Assembly: GCA_964351965.1 (NCBI GenBank)
Contig: CAYGPM010000012.1
Coordinates: 46,827-78,826 of the forward strand
Length of the DNA: 32,000 nt
From: an uncultured Hyphobacterium sp.
GTDB taxonomy: Bacteria > Bacteroidota > Bacteroidia > Cytophagales > CCMP332
Reading direction: 5' to 3'
Both the position numbers and the translations under genes were made by a program. Below, one piece after another: positions 2,245 through 28,002 of this stretch. Numbering within the stretch: the stretch's first letter is position 1; every line of letters begins with the position of its first letter. The notes beneath the pieces are model-generated. The model was given only the letters and a program-made list of their open reading frames with translations, did no database searches and was not told where the DNA came from.

Positions 2245-3240
2245 CTAATGAGCGTTTTGAGTCAATTCTTGGTTCTTTGCTTCCAGAACATTTCGAAAAA
2301 CACCAGCAGCATAGGCTCCAATATTGGATTTAATGATGTTATTGGACTTGGCCAATTGAATTTGATAACACAATTGATTGATTTCCTGAGTGTCTAATTT
2401 GGCAATGATGTCGCGTGAGAGTGCTGGAGAAAGTCCATATTTTGATCTTAGTGAATCATAAAGTGGCGAATCTGAAAGAAACATCTGAGCTTGTTGATTT
2501 GAAGGATCTCTTTCGATTAAAAAATCGATGTGCGTGAAGCTTCTACCACTTTTTTTGCGATAGGAATATGTGAAATTAATATTAGAAATGCTATTTATCT
2601 CCTTCTGAGCAGCTTGAATGACATAGCGATCAAAGTCAGAATGTTTTTCAAACTTTTCCTTTTCTTTTTTTTGGGATTTAGAATCGATCAATCCCGGTGT
2701 TAACCCAAGTATATACCTCAAGTCCTGTAGTGGATAACTTTTCATGCCAATATCATACCACTGACTCAGGAGCTCATAAATCCGTTTTGAATAAATACTT
2801 TTAAACTGTAAAGCGTAGGTGAGTGAATACTGTGTAAAATTCTTTTTTAAATCGAAGAGATAAGGACGTATCTGTGGAGAAAGTCCAATTTCAATCCTCC
2901 CCTTCCCTATAATATAGCGGGCATGGGAGATGAGAGACACCTGCAGAACTGTTTTGACTTTTTTTCCGTTTCGTTCCTCGATTTCCTTCACTTCCAGCAC
3001 ACGCTGCAGTAATTTTCTAGTAGCATCGCGGTATTTGTCAACAGAAGTTTGAGTTTTTGATAATTTTTTAAGCTGAACAGTGTCAATCTCATAAACTGTA
3101 TTTGGATCATCTTCTTCATTTAACTCACCCAAAACGCATAGAAATATATTCTTTTCCAGTAAGGACATGCGGTAATGGGCATTGGTAACCGCATTCCCCT
3201 GTCGGACAACCTTATTCTTTAAAAACTCTTCATCCTTCAT
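2245..3240 (-). CDS. plasmid replication initiator, Rep_3/RepB-like
   Basis: 331-aa ORF. The N-terminal VVRQGNAVTNAHYRMSLLEKNIFL resembles the Rep_3 initiator signature. The gene is flanked on both sides by iterons. Confidence 0.75.
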   Translation of the reverse strand: MKDEEFLKNKVVRQGNAVTNAHYRMSLLEKNIFLCVLGELNEEDDPNTVYEIDTVQLKKLSKTQTSVDKYRDATRKLLQRVLEVKEIEERNGKKVKTVLQVSLISHARYIIGKGRIEIGLSPQIRPYLFDLKKNFTQYSLTYALQFKSIYSKRIYELLSQWYDIGMKSYPLQDLRYILGLTPGLIDSKSQKKEKEKFEKHSDFDRYVIQAAQKEINSISNINFTYSYRKKSGRSFTHIDFLIERDPSNQQAQMFLSDSPLYDSLRSKYGLSPALSRDIIAKLDTQEINQLCYQIQLAKSNNIIKSNIGAYAAGVFRNVLEAKNQELTQNAH

Positions 3241-3276
3241 TTGTCAAATATAAAAATGTAAACTCTGTTATAAAAA

Positions 3277-3409
3277 TCTCTATTTCTCGTATTTCAACTC
3301 TATTTCTCGCTTTTCAGACACATATTTATGCTTCTTCTCGCTTTTACGTCTCTATTTCTCGTTTTAAAGTCCTAATTTCTCGCACTTAGGTCTCTATTAC
3401 TCACTTGAA
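3277..3409 (-). repeat. tandem iteron array in inverse orientation (origin core / rep operator)
   Basis: CTCTATTTCTCGCTTTTC, the reverse complement of the iteron, is perfect at 3298-3315. Degenerate copies start near 3277, 3330, 3349, 3370 and 3390 with about 20-21 bp periodicity. An A+T-rich stretch follows at about 3430-3490. Confidence 0.8.
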
Positions 3410-20975: not shown

Positions 20976-21054
20976 ATCTCTAAATCTTCTGAATGTTGGC
21001 CACGTAGCTGGTGAATTTGTTTGTTGTTTGCTTATTTTCTGTTTTCTTGTTTCA

Positions 21055-21119
21055 TCTGCTCAAACCTCTTAGCTACAGTGGTTGCCTCGACCGTTTTGCT
21101 TGCTTCAATGCAGAGAACC
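21055..21119. repeat. 65-nt repeat, copy A
   Basis: 52 of 65 positions are identical to 22472-22536, with no gaps. It abuts the stop codon of the 87-aa ORF. Confidence 0.8.
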
Positions 21120-21411: not shown

Positions 21412-22419
21412 TTATTTGTTCCAAACCTCAAGACCAGATTCATTCATAAATTTTTCGAAAAACTCAAATGAAGAATTAAACCAGTCTAAAATATCCCTTT
21501 CTGGATCCTCTTTATTGAGTAAAGTTGATAGTTCGCGCTCCAACCAGAACGAAGTTGCATAATCCAATTTGTCCATTGTCAACTCTGCATATTTTTCTGC
21601 TATCTTGACAACGCTGTCATGGTGTTCATTTTTTTTCTCCAGATAGACACCGACATAAATCGATGAATTTTCAAAATACATTCCATATGATAATTCAGAC
21701 GAACCCTTGCCTTCAACAATATTGTTTACATAGTAAACAAATATATTTTCATTCATGATCTGGGAAGTTGATTTGCCATTACTGACTTTATTTATTTTAC
21801 AAAACTTTTGTTCAAAATTGGGCCTAGCCGAATCTAAATATTCACTACACTTATAAAGCACTTCCTGTATGTTTTCAAAGACCATGAAGTCTTTCGTGTA
21901 TAATGTTGTGTCCTTTGCCATATCGTATGTTATTAAAAATTCTAAAAAGTCCGAAACCATTGCCTCACTTTCAAATTGTGTTAAAAAATGATGCAAATCA
22001 AGCCACCTGTGCTGTTTGAAGTTGTGGCTATTAATTTCTTTTATATCAGTATACTTTGTACAATAATGAAGTGTTGCATTGAGCCCTTTTTGGCTAAAAT
22101 AATCCAAGGCCAAACTATATCGTTCCAATTGACGGTACCCCTCTGAAGAGTTCACTTTATTTTCTATGAAACAAATGTTACTGGATCCTTCAATTACCAT
22201 GTCTATGATACAATCAATATCATTATCTAAAGTGTATTTCTTTTGAGTTCTAATGCTGTAATCATCCTCTGGAAGACTTAAGAATTCAAACAGGTATTCT
22301 TTTTTTATTTCGTTGTTGCTTTCTAAAAGTCCCGCAAGAGCTTCGGTTGCAAAATCTTCTAAAGGAGTTTTTCCAGAATTTACATTTTTTGAATACAGTT
22401 CCACTAATCTTTCTAGCAT
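21412..22419 (-). CDS. PD-(D/E)xK-type nuclease-like protein
   Basis: DCIIDMVIEGSSNICFIENKV gives the D...ExK arrangement, followed by QLERY. The N-terminal EDFATEALAGLL is typical of this class. Confidence 0.55.
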   Translation of the reverse strand: MLERLVELYSKNVNSGKTPLEDFATEALAGLLESNNEIKKEYLFEFLSLPEDDYSIRTQKKYTLDNDIDCIIDMVIEGSSNICFIENKVNSSEGYRQLERYSLALDYFSQKGLNATLHYCTKYTDIKEINSHNFKQHRWLDLHHFLTQFESEAMVSDFLEFLITYDMAKDTTLYTKDFMVFENIQEVLYKCSEYLDSARPNFEQKFCKINKVSNGKSTSQIMNENIFVYYVNNIVEGKGSSELSYGMYFENSSIYVGVYLEKKNEHHDSVVKIAEKYAELTMDKLDYATSFWLERELSTLLNKEDPERDILDWFNSSFEFFEKFMNESGLEVWNK

Positions 22420-22471
22420 CTGCTATCAATAATAGATTTAATTATAACTGATAATTGCCTTTCTTTATTCT

Positions 22472-22536
22472 TCTGCTCAAAAGCTTCAGCTACAGTGGTT
22501 GCCTCAGCAGTTTTGCTTGTCTCATTTCAGAGAGCC
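22472..22536. repeat. 65-nt repeat, copy B
   Basis: See copy A. It lies 52 nt upstream (minus strand) of the PD-(D/E)xK gene start. Confidence 0.8.
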
Positions 22537-22673
22537 AATAATAATTTGTACCAGTAAAACTAATTATAGTTTATTAATGAATTCTTGCTCGACCCGGCGG
22601 AAGGGTAGCTACACAATTGGCCAGGCAATTGTCACATTCTATTTCGAGCGGCGTCATAGGGTCTAATACCAAA

Positions 22674-22749
22674 GAGCCGTATGATGGGAGACTATCACGT
22701 ACGGTTCTATGAGAGGTTTAGGGGTGAGATTCCACTTTACCTACTCGAC
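22674..22749 (+). mobile_element. group II intron 3' remnant: domain V (22674-22707) and domain VI (22711-22746)
   Basis: GAGCCGTATGATGGGAGACTATCACGTACGGTTC is a 34-nt domain V hairpin with the canonical GAGCCGUAU...ACGUACGGUUC arms. It is followed by GAGAGGT...ACCT-A-CTC, a helix with a bulged A at 22743, 6 nt before a terminal AC at 22749. No reverse transcriptase ORF and no GUGYG 5' end are present. Confidence 0.8.
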
Positions 22750-23535
22750 TTATATTCTCATTTCAGTTTCAGACATTTTTGGTTCAGGCAATTTAAGTTT
22801 ACTGCAAAGCCCTTTAATATTCTCAAATTTCCAACGCTCCATTTCTGGATGACAAATAATCTCAATCAGTTCAATAAAGTTTTTTGTAATGTTATATCTA
22901 AAGAACTCTGGATTTGAGTCGGCATTGGAGGTAGGTGTAGCTATTAGAAACCGAAATTCTTTCTCATAATCATAAGCAACATCTTTTTTAAATGAACTGT
23001 ACTTAGGAAGTGTTTTCTTTTCAAATGGGTCAAATGGATTAAGCTTTAGATATGTTATACTTCCACAAATAAATTCGTTCTTTGGGTAGAAATGCGGCTG
23101 TAGTTCAAGATTTCTCTTGAAATAGTCTATCAAGTCTCTTGCGTTAGCTTTGATGGCAACACTGTTGCGGTTTGAGTACAAGTTCCACATTGCCACTGAT
23201 TCGCGCTGGGATTTAATCCAACAATTGATAAACTGAGTTCTCTGTTTCAGCGAAGATTCCGCTTCATAATTCTTCAGAGTCTTTTTATTGTTGCTATTGT
23301 GTTTGTCTCTGATTTTTTTGTCGATAGCAGGATTAGTCATGTTAGACTTTTGGGCAAAATATCGTTCTGCTATCAACTTGTATGTCACTCCTTCAAAAGG
23401 GTCTGAGAATTTATCAGTTCTTGTAAAGTGCAATTCCTGTGTGTTAGATAGGTCAATTAGCTTGTGTAAGTCAACATATCTCCAAAGCAAGTCTCCCTCT
23501 TTAAGTTTTGATTTTGATATTTCCTTAAATCTCAC
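22750..23535 (-). CDS. DUF2971-like protein
   Basis: The N-terminal LWRYVDLHKLIDLSNTQELHFTRTDKFSDPFEG fits the DUF2971 signature (Y..l..l..il....l.fs....fnDP.E). Confidence 0.6.
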   Translation of the reverse strand: MRFKEISKSKLKEGDLLWRYVDLHKLIDLSNTQELHFTRTDKFSDPFEGVTYKLIAERYFAQKSNMTNPAIDKKIRDKHNSNNKKTLKNYEAESSLKQRTQFINCWIKSQRESVAMWNLYSNRNSVAIKANARDLIDYFKRNLELQPHFYPKNEFICGSITYLKLNPFDPFEKKTLPKYSSFKKDVAYDYEKEFRFLIATPTSNADSNPEFFRYNITKNFIELIEIICHPEMERWKFENIKGLCSKLKLPEPKMSETEMRI

Positions 23536-23885
23536 AGGTAAGTAATCATTGAAGCATTAGCAATAAGTTTGTTTTTAATCTCGTCCTCTTTACATGCCAT
23601 GATCTTGTTGTAAATAAGTTTCATAGCCTTTTTGGGAAGAGTGTACAGGTGGCCCTTGTTTATTTTAGAATATACTGCTCCGGTATATAAGTCAAGTTTT
23701 TCGGGTGCATCGACTCTGTCTGCATGGGGGTCACTTGGAAATATCGTGTCTGGGTCGTATTTGTTGATTTTCCAAATTCCGTTGTGCTTGACCACTTTTT
23801 CAAGTAGTATTTGTTGTCCATCTTGGGTAATTTCCGCAAAGTCGGGAAGTTGAAATTCAAGTAATGGTTGTGCTTTCTTGTCCAT
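23532..23885 (-). CDS. hypothetical protein
   Basis: 117 aa. Its stop overlaps the DUF2971 start by 4 nt. Confidence 0.5.
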   Translation of the reverse strand: MDKKAQPLLEFQLPDFAEITQDGQQILLEKVVKHNGIWKINKYDPDTIFPSDPHADRVDAPEKLDLYTGAVYSKINKGHLYTLPKKAMKLIYNKIMACKEDEIKNKLIANASMITYL

Positions 23886-23889
23886 GGGG

Positions 23890-24219
23890 CTAAAAGTTTA
23901 TGGTAGCTAAATACCAGTCATTTTCCATTGTGTCATAGGTGATATGACCGTCATTTAGATATGTCAGGAGCACGATATAGTCCCATTGTTGGCTGTCTGT
24001 TGTTGTCTGCATTTGCCAAAGTGCTTTAAAAATCTCTTGCTTATTGAGTAAAGGAGGGAAATTGACTGTCTGATGTCGTTCTATGAAGTCTTTGATGTCT
24101 TGGTTGTCCAAGTTCACTTGGTTAGCCTGTGCAGTAAATTCGATTGATTGTCGCTGTCGAACAATGTCTTTAATTTCTTTGTATGTTATTCCGTTTCCAA
24201 GTTGTTTTTGTGTCTGCAT
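23890..24219 (-). CDS. hypothetical protein
   Basis: 109 aa, ending 4 nt before the next start. First gene of a tight three-gene operon. Confidence 0.5.
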   Translation of the reverse strand: MQTQKQLGNGITYKEIKDIVRQRQSIEFTAQANQVNLDNQDIKDFIERHQTVNFPPLLNKQEIFKALWQMQTTTDSQQWDYIVLLTYLNDGHITYDTMENDWYLATINF

Positions 24220-24237
24220 GATTGTCTTTTTAAAATT

Positions 24238-24369
24238 GCTGCCAGCGCTCGGCTATGGCAAGTGGCAGTTTTTGAAAAACGTTTCTGTCCACCGTAACCG
24301 AACGTAATAGCAAGATAAATATTTCGTTAACACTTTCGCCCGCCATTGGCCATAGCTATTGTTGGCAGC
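24238..24369. repeat. attC-like imperfect palindrome E1
   Basis: GCTGCCAGC (24238-46), 5-nt spacer, GCTATGGC (24252-59), variable centre, GCCATAGC (24349-56), 4-nt spacer, GTTGGCAGC (24361-69). It lies 7 nt after the stop of the 698-aa gene and 18 nt before the next ATG. Confidence 0.6.
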
Positions 24370-24376
24370 TGTATTT

Positions 24377-26473
24377 TTATTCTCTTCTTTTCTTTCGTTT
24401 CTCTTTTTTTTGCTCCAGTTTCTCAATCATTCTATGATATTCATTTATAGGATAACCCTTTACGAGTTTGAAGTTTTTGTCAAATAATGGGTCAATGATT
24501 GGCACCATATCGTCACCAAAGATCATTCTCATGTAGTTGTCAAAGTCTTTATCACTTTTTATGATTTTTAATTCCACCTCATTTAATTCAATACCAAACT
24601 GAGCCCAGTTGTTAAGTAAGTCTTTGAATTGTAATGGGTCTGAAACTATTGGTACGACATTACCGAGATTAACTATTGTTTCAGTGTCTTTATCACGTAC
24701 AAGGCATAATGGAGCGTAATAAAATATATCTAAGTCAAAAACTTTGGCAATAAGTTTACTGTACTTAGTGATTTCAGCGGATTTTATTTCGAGAATTACC
24801 TCATCAGTCTTTTTAATCTTTAATAACTCTGAATAAGAAGCAGTAATTTTACTTATGGACAACACACACATTGGGTCATTCATTTCAACATGTCTTTTCT
24901 GTGTCTCCTTAAATAATTCTAGGTACTCCTCTGCTTGAAGCTTATTTACTCTTTCAATCTTACTTCTTTCATAAGCATATGATGTGGAGCCATCCTCAAG
25001 ATTAAATTTTATACAATAACTGTAGTCGTTGTCATACTCCTCCTTCGAATTCCATGATATGACAGGCGTCCTCCCATGAAAGAGTTGTGGTTTTGCTTTT
25101 AACGAATTCAACATCCCTTGGCCTTTCATGAGTAGGGTAATCCACAATTTAAAATCAAAGGATTTCAAAAAGCTCTCTATTTCTTTTCTGGGAATTTGAA
25201 CTGTTCCTAGTATCCGGTCAATTGACCTTAAACAGGTCTTATGAACATTTCCAATGGCGGCAATTGTCTCTTTATCTTCAATTTCAACTAGTAATGCGTC
25301 TGAATCGCCAATTTGTTTCCCACAGTGAAGGCATAACTCAGGACTTTTATTACTCTTCACAAGAAATTCCAGATGTTCCTTGTGTAGCTTGGCACAAGCA
25401 GACTCTTCTATTGACTCAATCTCTCCAGCTGGGATTATTGCAATTCTTTTATCCTTGTACAAATCTTGGTATTCCTCCATGTACCTATCCAGTCCAGCCA
25501 TAGTTGCAAATCTCTGCACGACTTTCCATTCATCACCATTTCCTATCTTTATCTTACTGTTGTAGAACGTATTCTTAACTTGACAATCATCCTTGAATCT
25601 ATATAACTCGACAATCATAAAATCTAATTTGTCGAAGAATGATTCAATGAGAAGAACCTCCTTTCCTACAGAAAGTTCACCTTGAGAGATAACTTCAGTT
25701 TGCAAAAAGCTAGGGGTACGATCACTCTCCTTATCATCGTCTAAATATTTGTTGAAGATGTCAGCAACTTTCTGCTTATCTATCGAGAGCCTGCGAGAAG
25801 AATAGATTAAGGAATTCTTTATTAGAACTGCCCAAATCGTCTGAGGGCGTTTAAACCCAATGCTTTTTAAAAGCATAAATGATGCAATCTCCACGGTGTG
25901 TCCAGTTTCAGCATCTATAACTCCAATAAAAATTCTTTTTGCGAATAATTTAAATATGTCGGATGAAGGTTTTAATTTAATTGCCTCCTCATATATTTTA
26001 TTAAAAACCATCTCGAACTTCTGAAGAGTATCTTTCTCAGATTCGTTCAAAGGATTTTCGTCAAATGCATCTTCATTTAATCGAATAGATAAAACAATTT
26101 TCTTTAAATCATTAGTGATTTTGCTTGAAGCATCACTTGTAGTAATTAGACCAAAATAATGTTTCGTATTTTCGTTTTTGATGAATTCCTCAACAAACTG
26201 TTTTACTGTTTTATAAAACTCACTTGTCTCTCTGGTTGAAAGAGTCAAGCTTCTTTTTATCTGTAGAAAGACTATTTTTTCATTTCTACATAATAAGTTG
26301 ATGTCGTCAATAGCTCTACCTGTTTCAAAATATATCTTTTCAATAAGGAGTTCCTCATCTATCTGATCAAAATACGCTGAGATGTCAAATTGCGTATATT
26401 GGTTAATTAAACACCAAGCAGCAATTCGTTGTTGATAATCTATTCCGGAATTTGTTGCTTGTCCTCCTGTCAT
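24377..26473 (-). CDS. DUF4297/Cap4-like nuclease-domain protein with a large uncharacterised C-terminal region
   Basis: The start is taken at the ATG at 26473 (MTGGQATNSGIDYQQR...). GG....G.DYQ followed by FETGRAIDDINLL...VFLQIKRS (E, DD, QxK) resembles the DUF4297 PD-(D/E)xK fold. There is a CxxC...HxxC pair in the middle of the protein. Confidence 0.55.
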   Translation of the reverse strand: MTGGQATNSGIDYQQRIAAWCLINQYTQFDISAYFDQIDEELLIEKIYFETGRAIDDINLLCRNEKIVFLQIKRSLTLSTRETSEFYKTVKQFVEEFIKNENTKHYFGLITTSDASSKITNDLKKIVLSIRLNEDAFDENPLNESEKDTLQKFEMVFNKIYEEAIKLKPSSDIFKLFAKRIFIGVIDAETGHTVEIASFMLLKSIGFKRPQTIWAVLIKNSLIYSSRRLSIDKQKVADIFNKYLDDDKESDRTPSFLQTEVISQGELSVGKEVLLIESFFDKLDFMIVELYRFKDDCQVKNTFYNSKIKIGNGDEWKVVQRFATMAGLDRYMEEYQDLYKDKRIAIIPAGEIESIEESACAKLHKEHLEFLVKSNKSPELCLHCGKQIGDSDALLVEIEDKETIAAIGNVHKTCLRSIDRILGTVQIPRKEIESFLKSFDFKLWITLLMKGQGMLNSLKAKPQLFHGRTPVISWNSKEEYDNDYSYCIKFNLEDGSTSYAYERSKIERVNKLQAEEYLELFKETQKRHVEMNDPMCVLSISKITASYSELLKIKKTDEVILEIKSAEITKYSKLIAKVFDLDIFYYAPLCLVRDKDTETIVNLGNVVPIVSDPLQFKDLLNNWAQFGIELNEVELKIIKSDKDFDNYMRMIFGDDMVPIIDPLFDKNFKLVKGYPINEYHRMIEKLEQKKEKRKKRRE

Positions 26474-26491
26474 TTTGAAAAATGTGTTCGT

Positions 26492-27792
26492 TAAGATACA
26501 TCCTTTACACAAGTTATAGATTAGCCTTTACACTAGATTAGTTTCTAACCTTACTGATTGTTCTTTCGTTCTTAATTCATTTTCATTAAAGTATCCTAAA
26601 AATACATTTCTATAAAACACCCGCCAAATTCCATTTCCCATCTCTAGGGCTCCTATGTATTTCCCTTGCAATGAAGCAGATACATATACCCAGTTATAGG
26701 AGCCCCATCGGACAGATCCGTTCTTGGTCACTTTTAAGACTTTCATTTCTGAGTCATAGTCAAAGTTGTTGATTCTTTCGGGAAAAGGACGCGTAGAAAA
26801 CTCATGAACAGAAGCAGGTGTTTGCATGTCCAGAGCTTCGTGGGGTCTTATGTGATTATACTCCTTTACAAATCGATTTAAACGCCTCTGTTGGGCTTTT
26901 AAATCATAAGCTGAAGGTTTGGCGCAAGCCGCCTTTAAATCTCTGTGCATTCGCTCATGTCTTCCGTTTTGTTCAGGGTGCGAAGGATCAGAATAAACAG
27001 GTATGATTCCAAGTTCAATGAACCAGTAGGAGAGCCTGGTAAAACGTTGTATGGCTTTAACAGATCCGAAAGGGCTGCCGTTGTCAGTATGGATTTGTTT
27101 AGGAATACCATACATCCTGAAAACCCTGGTAAAATCTGCTTTAGCTGAAGCCAGGTTCTCTTTGTAATGTCCTTTTGCAGTAAATACAAATCGGCTTTTT
27201 GAATCGGCAATAGTAAGTGGATGACAGTAGATTTTATTACCCATTAAAAACTTTCCTTTGTAGTCTGCACTCCAGACTTCATTGCACTGCTTCGGATCGA
27301 AAATGGGGTGAATGGGTTTGACTCTTCGCAGGCGTTTCTGAGGGCTTACCAAACCATGTTTTTTCAGGATGTTGTGTACGGTCAACATACTTGGGATCAT
27401 TTCATCTGAAAAATCGTTATACAACAGTTTGTGGATTTTTTTTGCTCCCCACAGCTTGTGTTTTTCTTTCAGTTTAAGAATGCCTTCTATCACTTTTTCA
27501 GCAGTGGTATTTGGATGAGGTCCGCGAGGTTTTCTTGAAAGTTCTCTTAGCCCTTCATAGCCTTCGTTTTCAAATCGGGTTATGATTTTATAGGCAGTAG
27601 GCCTCGATATTTCAAAACTTCTGCACAGCTCCGAGATCGTATATTGACCGGTGCGCCATTCACAGATAAACTCAATTTTTTGTTCCATTATCGTTGTTTC
27701 TTTCCAAGGCATGGCAATCTGAATTTTTCTTCAAATTGCATCTTAAAAAGTGTAAACGATGTTTCTATAACTCTGTAAAGGATGTTTGTATA
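26492..27792 (-). mobile_element. IS481-family-like insertion sequence
   Basis: Core inverted repeats are ACATCCTTTACA[CA/G]AGTTATAG at 26498-26519 and its complement at 27765-27785. The outer ends are approximate. A possible 4-bp TCGT duplication lies at 26488-91 and 27793-96. Confidence 0.7.
26528..27712 (-). CDS. DDE transposase/integrase (rve core), IS481-like
   Basis: N-terminal HTH (ISELCRSFEISRPTAYKI), plus WSADYKG, HTDNGSPF and HPEQNGRHERMHRDLK, which supply the D, D, E triad context. Confidence 0.85.
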   Translation of the reverse strand: MPWKETTIMEQKIEFICEWRTGQYTISELCRSFEISRPTAYKIITRFENEGYEGLRELSRKPRGPHPNTTAEKVIEGILKLKEKHKLWGAKKIHKLLYNDFSDEMIPSMLTVHNILKKHGLVSPQKRLRRVKPIHPIFDPKQCNEVWSADYKGKFLMGNKIYCHPLTIADSKSRFVFTAKGHYKENLASAKADFTRVFRMYGIPKQIHTDNGSPFGSVKAIQRFTRLSYWFIELGIIPVYSDPSHPEQNGRHERMHRDLKAACAKPSAYDLKAQQRRLNRFVKEYNHIRPHEALDMQTPASVHEFSTRPFPERINNFDYDSEMKVLKVTKNGSVRWGSYNWVYVSASLQGKYIGALEMGNGIWRVFYRNVFLGYFNENELRTKEQSVRLETNLV

Positions 27793-27804
27793 TCGTACCA
27801 TATT

Positions 27805-28002
27805 GCTGCCAACGTTTAGTATATGGCAAGTAGGGCAGTAGAAAGCGATAAACTTTCAGCTTTGCACTGAGCCAAAGCGTTGTATTTTGTTTTTAATTTA
27901 TTCATTTTAAAAGTCAAATCAACGATTTGGCTGTGTTGGTAAATAGTACTGAACTTTCCTAAACCATAGAACGCCCTATTTGCTATATACCGTGTTGGGG
28001 TG
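27805..28002. repeat. attC-like imperfect palindrome E2
   Basis: GCTGCCAAC (27805-13), 6-nt spacer, TATATGGCAAGTAGGGCAGT, variable centre, AACGCCCTATTTGCTATATA, 4-nt spacer, GTTGGGGTG (27994-28002). It overlaps the last codons of the NmrA-like gene. Confidence 0.6.

Follow-up and report, generated by a model that had tools for sequence, protein, structure and literature searches.

Three tightly packed genes, A-B-C, as a probable fused cassette in a Bacteroidota integron-like array

The DNA analysed here (the window) is a stretch of 32,000 nucleotides (nt) from an uncultured Hyphobacterium sp., positions 46,827 to 78,826 of contig CAYGPM010000012.1 (assembly GCA_964351965.1). Its minus strand carries three co-oriented genes, named A, B and C, which a first-pass annotation made from the letters alone described as a tightly coupled operon. 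The tight layout, a 4-nt gap followed by a 4-nt overlap, is borne out by the coordinates of the open reading frames (ORFs), and the origin of this layout is the subject of our analysis.

24219-23890, minus strand: gene A, 109 residues, ATG start.
23886-23889: spacer between A and B, 4 nt.
23885-23532, minus strand: gene B, 117 residues, ATG start.
23532-23535, minus strand: B/C junction GTGA, which holds the stop codon TGA of B and the start codon GTG of C.
23535-22750, minus strand: gene C, 261 residues, GTG start, DUF2971 / PDC-S31-type.

On the minus strand, the join of B and C reads CTG-TGA-GAT, and the B stop and the C start overlap by 4 nt. At least nine runs of one study yielded contigs of identical sequence that carry the A-B-C junction, which is therefore no assembly artefact. 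The two small ORFs are genuine genes: both have homologues, and the ratio of nonsynonymous to synonymous substitution rates (dN/dS) ranges from 0.05 to 0.28 for A and B together. For A, five homologous clusters at 51-87% identity were found among 5.8 billion proteins, and dN/dS against the relatives is 0.08-0.28; for B, a word search returned 25 clusters, and dN/dS is ~0.05. The synonymous divergence (dS) is above 1.4 in both cases, and all three genes of the trio are under coding selection. As real genes packed this tightly, A, B and C may plausibly be co-transcribed, with the translation of B and C coupled. Between 22300 and 24500 there is no terminator-like site.

Everywhere else, A-B and C are independent units. 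The A-B pair, two small co-oriented genes with the same 4-nt gap as in the window, occurs without C at loci L005-7 (74% identity for A, 80% for B), L019 (76% and 88%) and L142 (B 88% identical). A fourth context without C is that of decayed A-B pairs, found at L002-4, where B is frameshifted, and at L008, where A is decayed; across ~20 loci, no C stands beside A or B. The same separation is seen from the side of C. Its relatives at 71-78% identity (L022-27, L054-58) have neither A nor B nearby, and tblastn matches to A or B were found in 0 of 80 metagenome loci with C-family genes and in none of L022-L027. Of 400 other genomes sampled across the phylum, 2 contain the B family and 22 the C family, and the two sets do not overlap; of 400 other genomes from the order, a single one contains B. 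The first-pass annotation had proposed a dedicated three-gene system forming a stoichiometric complex, and had itself named a lack of co-occurrence as one outcome that would speak against it. In the genomes and metagenome loci searched, the trio was found nowhere but at this junction; the proposal is not borne out, and a three-protein complex is unlikely.

Homology at the DNA level divides the locus at the same place. Window positions 24250-23532 align with A-B loci and the alignment ends exactly at the B stop (23532), and positions 23534-22750 align with C loci, beginning exactly at the C start codon. The start codon itself differs between the window and elsewhere: it is GTG here versus ATG in 11 of the 11 close relatives read (L022, L024, L054-L058, L060, L064-L066), several of which have ATGA. 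In the GTGA of the window, the G continues the last codon of B, CTG.

The upstream side of A is occupied by an attC-like element, E1, with the following parts.

24234..24373, upstream of A: E1, an attC-like imperfect hairpin of ~130 nt, recognised from its boxes and its fold as single-stranded DNA.
24238-24246 and 24361-24369, plus strand: outer boxes of E1, GCTGCCAGC and GTTGGCAGC, respectively.
24252-24266, paired with 24342-24356: inner stem of E1.

Folded as single-stranded DNA, E1 reaches -23 kcal/mol (z -2.2). The operon had been said to start 18 nt from this element, and that distance holds when it is measured from the A start codon to box GCTGCCAGC. A likeness had also been noted between 24236-24282 and 27802-27850, upstream of a nuclease gene, at about 80% identity and with either a shared site family or a shared regulatory leader as its meaning. 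The likeness is real over its first ~33 nt, which are ~80% identical, and the figure does not extend to the whole stretch, which is only ~60-65% identical; of the two meanings, the shared site family is the right one, and the shared stretch is the right-hand half of attC-like hairpins.

Boxes of this kind also accompany the two units elsewhere. The right end of the E-type hairpin is the box CGTT(G/A)GCAGC(A/T)ATTTAAA (CGTTGGCAGC(A/T)ATTTAAAA), and this R'-type box stands 12-22 nt before the ATG of relatives of A (L019, L005) and of C (L022, L024, L054-L058). In the window it is present only before A, and C lacks a box of its own. On the other side, relatives have an ...AAC box 3-12 nt after the stop codon: a complementary left box, GCTGCCAA, lies 7 nt after B in L005, and another, GCTGCTAAC, lies 10 nt after C in L024. 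Within the C family, 14 of 57 non-redundant loci have an exact upstream GTT-box of at least 9 nt together with its reverse complement no more than 50 nt after the stop codon, against 0.54 loci expected by chance from shuffles, and some of these pairs are the classical GTTAGGC/GCCTAAC. Two-gene cassettes bounded on both sides are found in L005 (A-B) and L015 (a 99-residue partner and B). The boxes around the relatives thus show the usual state of the two units, a single-gene cassette of the attC type for C and a two-gene cassette for A-B.

At the 3' end of the operon, the first-pass annotation placed an antisense group II intron remnant instead of an E-type site, and the Rfam match confirms it.

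22672..22749, plus strand, antisense to the operon: remnant of group II intron domains V-VI (Rfam RF00029, 63.7 bits).

This match stops a single base short of the complement of the C stop codon, and the remnant stands where relatives carry the left box of the attC-like site; the site beside it is gone. The remnant has no reverse-transcriptase ORF and no 5' end, and a full-length copy of the intron was not found in the window's own genome, where only a flanking 77-nt repeat recurs. A-B-C is bounded upstream by E1, which can still fold, and downstream by an intron remnant in place of the site of C; since only E1 is intact, A-B-C can presumably no longer move by itself as a cassette. A search for an integron integrase (IntI) returned eight weak tyrosine-recombinase matches (TIGR02249) in the genome, all of which fall short of the cut-off and lie on contigs other than that of the window. 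The 77-nt sequence forms a direct repeat in the window (21043-21119 and 22460-22536, 79% identical) that brackets a PD-(D/E)XK gene, and a third copy, 85% identical, lies elsewhere in the genome (C18:5415-5492). The repeat does not resemble the E-type sites; a shared leader or another family of sites may account for it.

On these grounds we judge it probable, without great confidence, that A-B-C is a chimeric fused cassette, now immobile, and that it lies on a plasmid contig within an integron-like array of the Bacteroidota type. The trio is probably a recent weld of two mobile units, and an old three-protein machine is doubtful. The first unit would be the A-B pair, in which B travels with one of several unrelated small partners and which probably has its own promoter, as integron toxin-antitoxin (TA) cassettes do. 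The second would be C, elsewhere apparently a promoterless single-gene cassette. The recombination site and the leader of C would have been lost in a deletion from the TGA of the B stop to the TGA in an ancestral ATGA start of C, and this single event would explain the abutment of the two genes, the missing site and leader, and the change from ATG to GTG. C would then be made only from the A-B transcript, through re-initiation by ribosomes that terminate on B. Separately, the 3' site of C would have been struck by an antisense group II intron, of which domains V-VI are left.

The same junction can be read as an old, dedicated complex of three proteins in which translational coupling fixes the stoichiometry, given that the gene spacing is very tight and that the three genes are intact and under selection. 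We consider this very improbable. The trio is found nowhere else, a lack of co-occurrence that already contradicts the idea; the homology breakpoints lie exactly at the B/C boundary; and C has GTG here against ATG in relatives, many of which keep an upstream box of their own that is missing in the window.

What the A-B pair does is best approached through the partners of B, which fall into three mutually unrelated families at an overall spacing of -8 to +14 nt. First, A (109 residues) sits upstream of B. Second, a family of 92-99 residues is also found upstream of B, in L015, L139 and L141, at a spacing of -8 to +7 nt. Third, a coiled-coil family of 145-148 residues lies downstream of B in L009, L010/11 and L013, at +8 to +14 nt. 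Further small partners occur in L012 and L014. Relatives of A and B have HipBA, Fic, HEPN, restriction-modification and PD-(D/E)XK genes as neighbours. Such an arrangement, in which one conserved hub exchanges its closely spaced partners within cassette arrays and beside TA and defence genes, is the pattern of TA or effector-immunity pairs, and by this analogy A-B may be a TA-like addiction or defence module, a reading that in our estimation falls somewhat short of probable. That A-B is an autonomous two-gene unit is more secure than the TA-like reading. Within the pair, B is more likely to be the effector. Two other relationships among the partners were considered and rejected: neither A nor the 92-99-residue partner corresponds to the N-terminal domain of the long B forms described below (hhalign probabilities below 1%), and the other upstream partners of B are not remote homologues of A.

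Several observations weigh against the fused-cassette reading or against parts of it. No promoter was identified by a sigma-70-type scan, which found 8 sites against 5.8 expected and is uninformative for Bacteroidota. B has no obvious partner in L137, L020 and L016 and stands beside a decayed A in L008, while A is intact and under purifying selection beside a decayed B in L002-4 and occurs alone in L001; these cases blur the TA reading of A-B. No likeness to known toxins or antitoxins was found for either protein, in sequence or in predicted fold, and A has no match to a DNA-binding domain. Lastly, B is trailed, with no site in between, by other defence candidates within single cassettes, so its weld to C may be more than an accident.

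In a rival reading, A-B is neither TA-like nor a defence module. The pair would have some accessory role, such as that of a small enzyme accompanied by a subunit for specificity or chaperoning, and would have come to lie beside C as the array decayed neutrally; C itself may even be silent. Each of A and B occurs without the other, neither has any likeness to known toxins, antitoxins or defence proteins, and the surrounding array is indeed decaying, with an IS481 insertion in addition to the intron remnant. We give this account little credence, because a hub with unrelated partners swapped at or near overlap is typical of TA or effector-immunity pairs, the neighbours include HipBA, Fic, HEPN, restriction-modification and PD-(D/E)XK genes, and C retains all the invariant residues of its family.

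The last point leads to another reading, in which a partner and B together would serve as a portable sensor, regulator or activator, a front end for whichever effector is welded behind them, and A-B-C would be a functional, modular three-gene defence system, though a young one. In L019, A, B and a gene for a 155-residue protein lie between boxes GTTGGCAGC and GCTGCCAAT; in L141, a 97-residue partner, B, a DUF5343 gene and an HEPN_Swt1 gene lie between GTTAGCAGT and ACTGCTAAC. Each set is thus enclosed by one complementary pair of boxes, as a single cassette. L142 is similar, with A, B and a DUF5343 gene, and its contig ends before any right-hand box. The combination of DUF5343 and HEPN_Swt1 is the PADLOC candidate PDC-M34A/B, so that the third genes, like C (PDC-S31), belong to PADLOC defence candidates; the next cassette in L005 carries DUF488, which is PADLOC PDC-M45B. 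Between L141 and L142, B is 76% identical, the DUF5343 genes are 27% identical and the upstream partners are unrelated, values that suggest that B has been joined to this effector family more than once. Even so, we hold the front-end reading to be unlikely. A partner and B alone form complete cassettes in L005 and L015, which points to autonomous function; C relatives are overwhelmingly stand-alone, and Aristaios, another DUF2971 system, works as one gene (PMC11381338); and defence genes cluster anyway. The ~18 contexts of B available are a small sample, too few to choose between the weld and front-end explanations. We prefer the explanation that promoterless defence cassettes would be repeatedly welded behind a promoter-bearing pair, as such a weld permits their expression.

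As the first-pass annotation had stated, the two small proteins have no recognisable family. A has no significant match in Pfam, NCBIfam or PADLOC and no known domain. Its AlphaFold2 (AF2) model has a predicted local distance difference test score (pLDDT) of 80; the best Foldseek match in the PDB has an E-value of 0.08, no fold match was obtained in the PDB at E<0.07 or in BFVD, and a profile search of PDB sequences gave none either. A belongs to a rare family, with six clusters among the 5.8 billion proteins; B can pair with this family or with at least two others.

B is likewise without a significant match in Pfam, NCBIfam or PADLOC. Its AF2 model has a pLDDT of 83, the best Foldseek match in the PDB has an E-value of 0.7, and neither Foldseek against the PDB and BFVD nor the profile search of PDB sequences gave a match. 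A full hidden Markov model (HMM) search extends the family to 367 clusters (50% identity) at E<=1e-3. The motif W..HK.D.D..FPSD.H.(D/H) ... LDLYTG is invariant in the family, with the invariant residues W38, D44, D46, P50, S51, H54 and D56 followed by L-D-L-Y-T-G, and D56 is replaced by His in the long forms. This set of residues suggests a metal-binding active site, and B is a small, strongly conserved, enzyme-like protein that is probably metal-dependent. Three architectures occur in the family: the short one seen in B, a longer one whose N-terminal domain resembles ThiS, and another long one in which the N-terminal domain is helical. The short form is linked to the ThiS-type long form by hhalign at 99.9% probability; the resemblance of the long forms to ThiS is itself weak (16-18 bits, below the cut-off) and serves as a lead only. 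No Pfam or NCBIfam model matches the short B, ten ThiS-type and other long forms, or 19 helical-N forms, and with no match in the PDB either, the B family is undescribed.

With the window's own genome counted in both samples, the B family was found in 3 of 401 genomes from the phylum and in 2 of 401 from the order; the B genes in the other genomes are long forms, and B was not found in the three same-genus and four same-family genomes sampled. Two scans of viral contigs found no B in phages, and B has a weak match to phrog_10735 (E 1e-4). Among the long forms, the ~160-residue relatives P0104, P0113, P0120, P0122, P0128 and P0172 (alignment A4) have an N-terminal domain that is weakly ThiS/MoaD beta-grasp-like; its last residues, R-G-(G/E/A), immediately precede the B domain and recall the tail of a ubiquitin-like protein. 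At L030:1075-1986, a long form with a helical N-terminal domain is followed 4 nt later by a gene for a 123-residue protein, and at L143:519-1794 a long form stands behind a P-loop (zeta-toxin-like) gene and an NYN-domain gene; the surroundings of both are again toxin-antitoxin-like. At L008:5674-6414, the decayed A and a B with an altered C-terminus lie at an odd cassette site, between two glutamate synthase subunit genes of a Saprospiraceae metagenome-assembled genome.

C belongs to a better-known group. The first-pass annotation had recognised a DUF2971 signature at its N-terminus; the family assignment stands, with an HMM score above the cut-off, and the N-terminal placement does not, since the match covers residues 116-196. 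The score against Pfam PF11185 (DUF2971) is 23.8 bits, a small margin over the gathering cut-off of 22. C also matches PADLOC PDC-S31 (E 5e-14) and phrog_34615 (E 1e-23), and in tblastn it aligns over ~90% of its length with plasmid proteins annotated as DUF2971 from several phyla. Its homologues make up 57 clusters, with 285 confirmed stretches in metagenome contigs. Among 21 homologues, down to 25% identity, E112-S113, M116-W117-N118, Y120-S121, Y162 and E191-x-E193 are invariant, and R39 is nearly so (at least 90% of the 21); the C of the window keeps all the invariant residues. DUF2971 has been described as an ADP-ribosyltransferase (ART)-like domain that is found near DarT and AbiGi and has a conserved Tyr and an ExE motif (PMC12522546). 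The conserved residues of C match the catalytic core described for ARTs, namely a basic or His residue in motif I, Tyr/Ser in motif II and ExE in motif III, the placement in these motifs being taken from PMC12522546 and not from a structure; a profile search of PDB sequences gave no match for C. As a DUF2971-family protein of defence type, C has a predicted ADP-ribosyltransferase-like fold and is a putative enzyme of that kind.

Other members of the family were met in passing. A second, distant DUF2971-family gene lies in the window's own genome (C3:132000-132491; E 4e-12 to the C profile). A relative of C at 71% identity (L024:4500-12000, L027:2900-10900) lies in a long array of near-identical repeats spaced at 420-520 bp, the repeats being GCTGATAAC and ATTGCCAAC boxes; these repeats adjoin an EcoRI restriction-modification system and have the look of a large cassette array in which most cassettes are very short.

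In the window, the neighbours of the operon are also defence-like: a 711-residue protein (24377-26512), whose N-terminus matches PADLOC PDC-M54A (E 1.5e-26) and LmuA (E 8e-5), and a 335-residue protein (21412-22419), which matches PDDEXK_4 and PDC-S26. At a distance, a 21-nt motif, AAAAGCGAGAAATAGAGAG, occurs in five direct copies and in inverted copies at 1638-2139 and 3268-3318; the copies flank a gene for a 331-residue protein (2245-3240) and resemble the iterons of a plasmid replication origin.

The locus has consequences for the reading of similar ones. Tight spacing by itself is no proof of an old protein complex. An array of this kind can weld a promoterless defence gene behind a self-sufficient pair, which would be a possible route for the birth of multi-gene defence operons. 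The B family, for its part, combines TA-like partner swapping with a recurrent place ahead of anti-phage candidates. It is conceivable, though we hold it doubtful, that B stands for a new superfamily of small His/Asp-motif enzymes in three architectures and that a partner and B act as a front end driving promoterless defence effectors in single cassettes. If true, integron-like arrays would have a modular design, 'driver plus swappable effector', that has so far not been reported for them.

Several known systems can be set beside the locus. The insertion sites of group IIC-attC introns lie on the bottom strand, between a gene and its attC, with the intron antisense to the genes of the cassette (PMC3001079), and the remnant shares this antisense orientation and the place after the C gene. 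It differs in that only domains V-VI are present, 78 nt or somewhat more, and is a candidate for this class. Aristaios is a one-gene abortive-infection system of lactococcal plasmids with DUF2971 as its sole domain (PMC11381338). Like Aristaios and PDC-S31, C carries DUF2971 over its full length with a conserved ExE-type motif, a kinship at the level of the domain, and its relatives are stand-alone genes in mobile or defence contexts; unlike Aristaios, which has 316 residues, C has 261, and in our reading it has lost its own leader and relies on the upstream genes.

The A-B pair invites comparison with the TA cassettes of (sedentary chromosomal) integrons, the classical two-gene cassettes that carry their own promoter (PMC13108822). 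A-B is alike in being two small genes at near-zero spacing in cassette arrays beside TA and defence genes, and unlike in having no known toxin, antitoxin or DNA-binding domain and in that each gene also occurs alone. It resembles the 'mix-and-match' TA families as well, with B as the one conserved component and unrelated alternative partners.

The closest parallel for the whole is the fused cassettes of integrons, in which loss of attC with polycistronic transcription is documented (PMC4670013). The present case differs from them in its host array, which is Bacteroidota integron-like, in a genome without an IntI above the cut-off, and not a class 1 integron; in its first unit, which has two genes; and in its join, which is base-exact, with a stop/start overlap and a changed start codon. 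It agrees with them in that two ORF units elsewhere separate are joined with no recombination site between them, co-oriented and presumably on one message, with the surviving site, E1, upstream. A fused cassette is a known kind of event; here, C is a new member of a known family and A-B represents an undescribed one.

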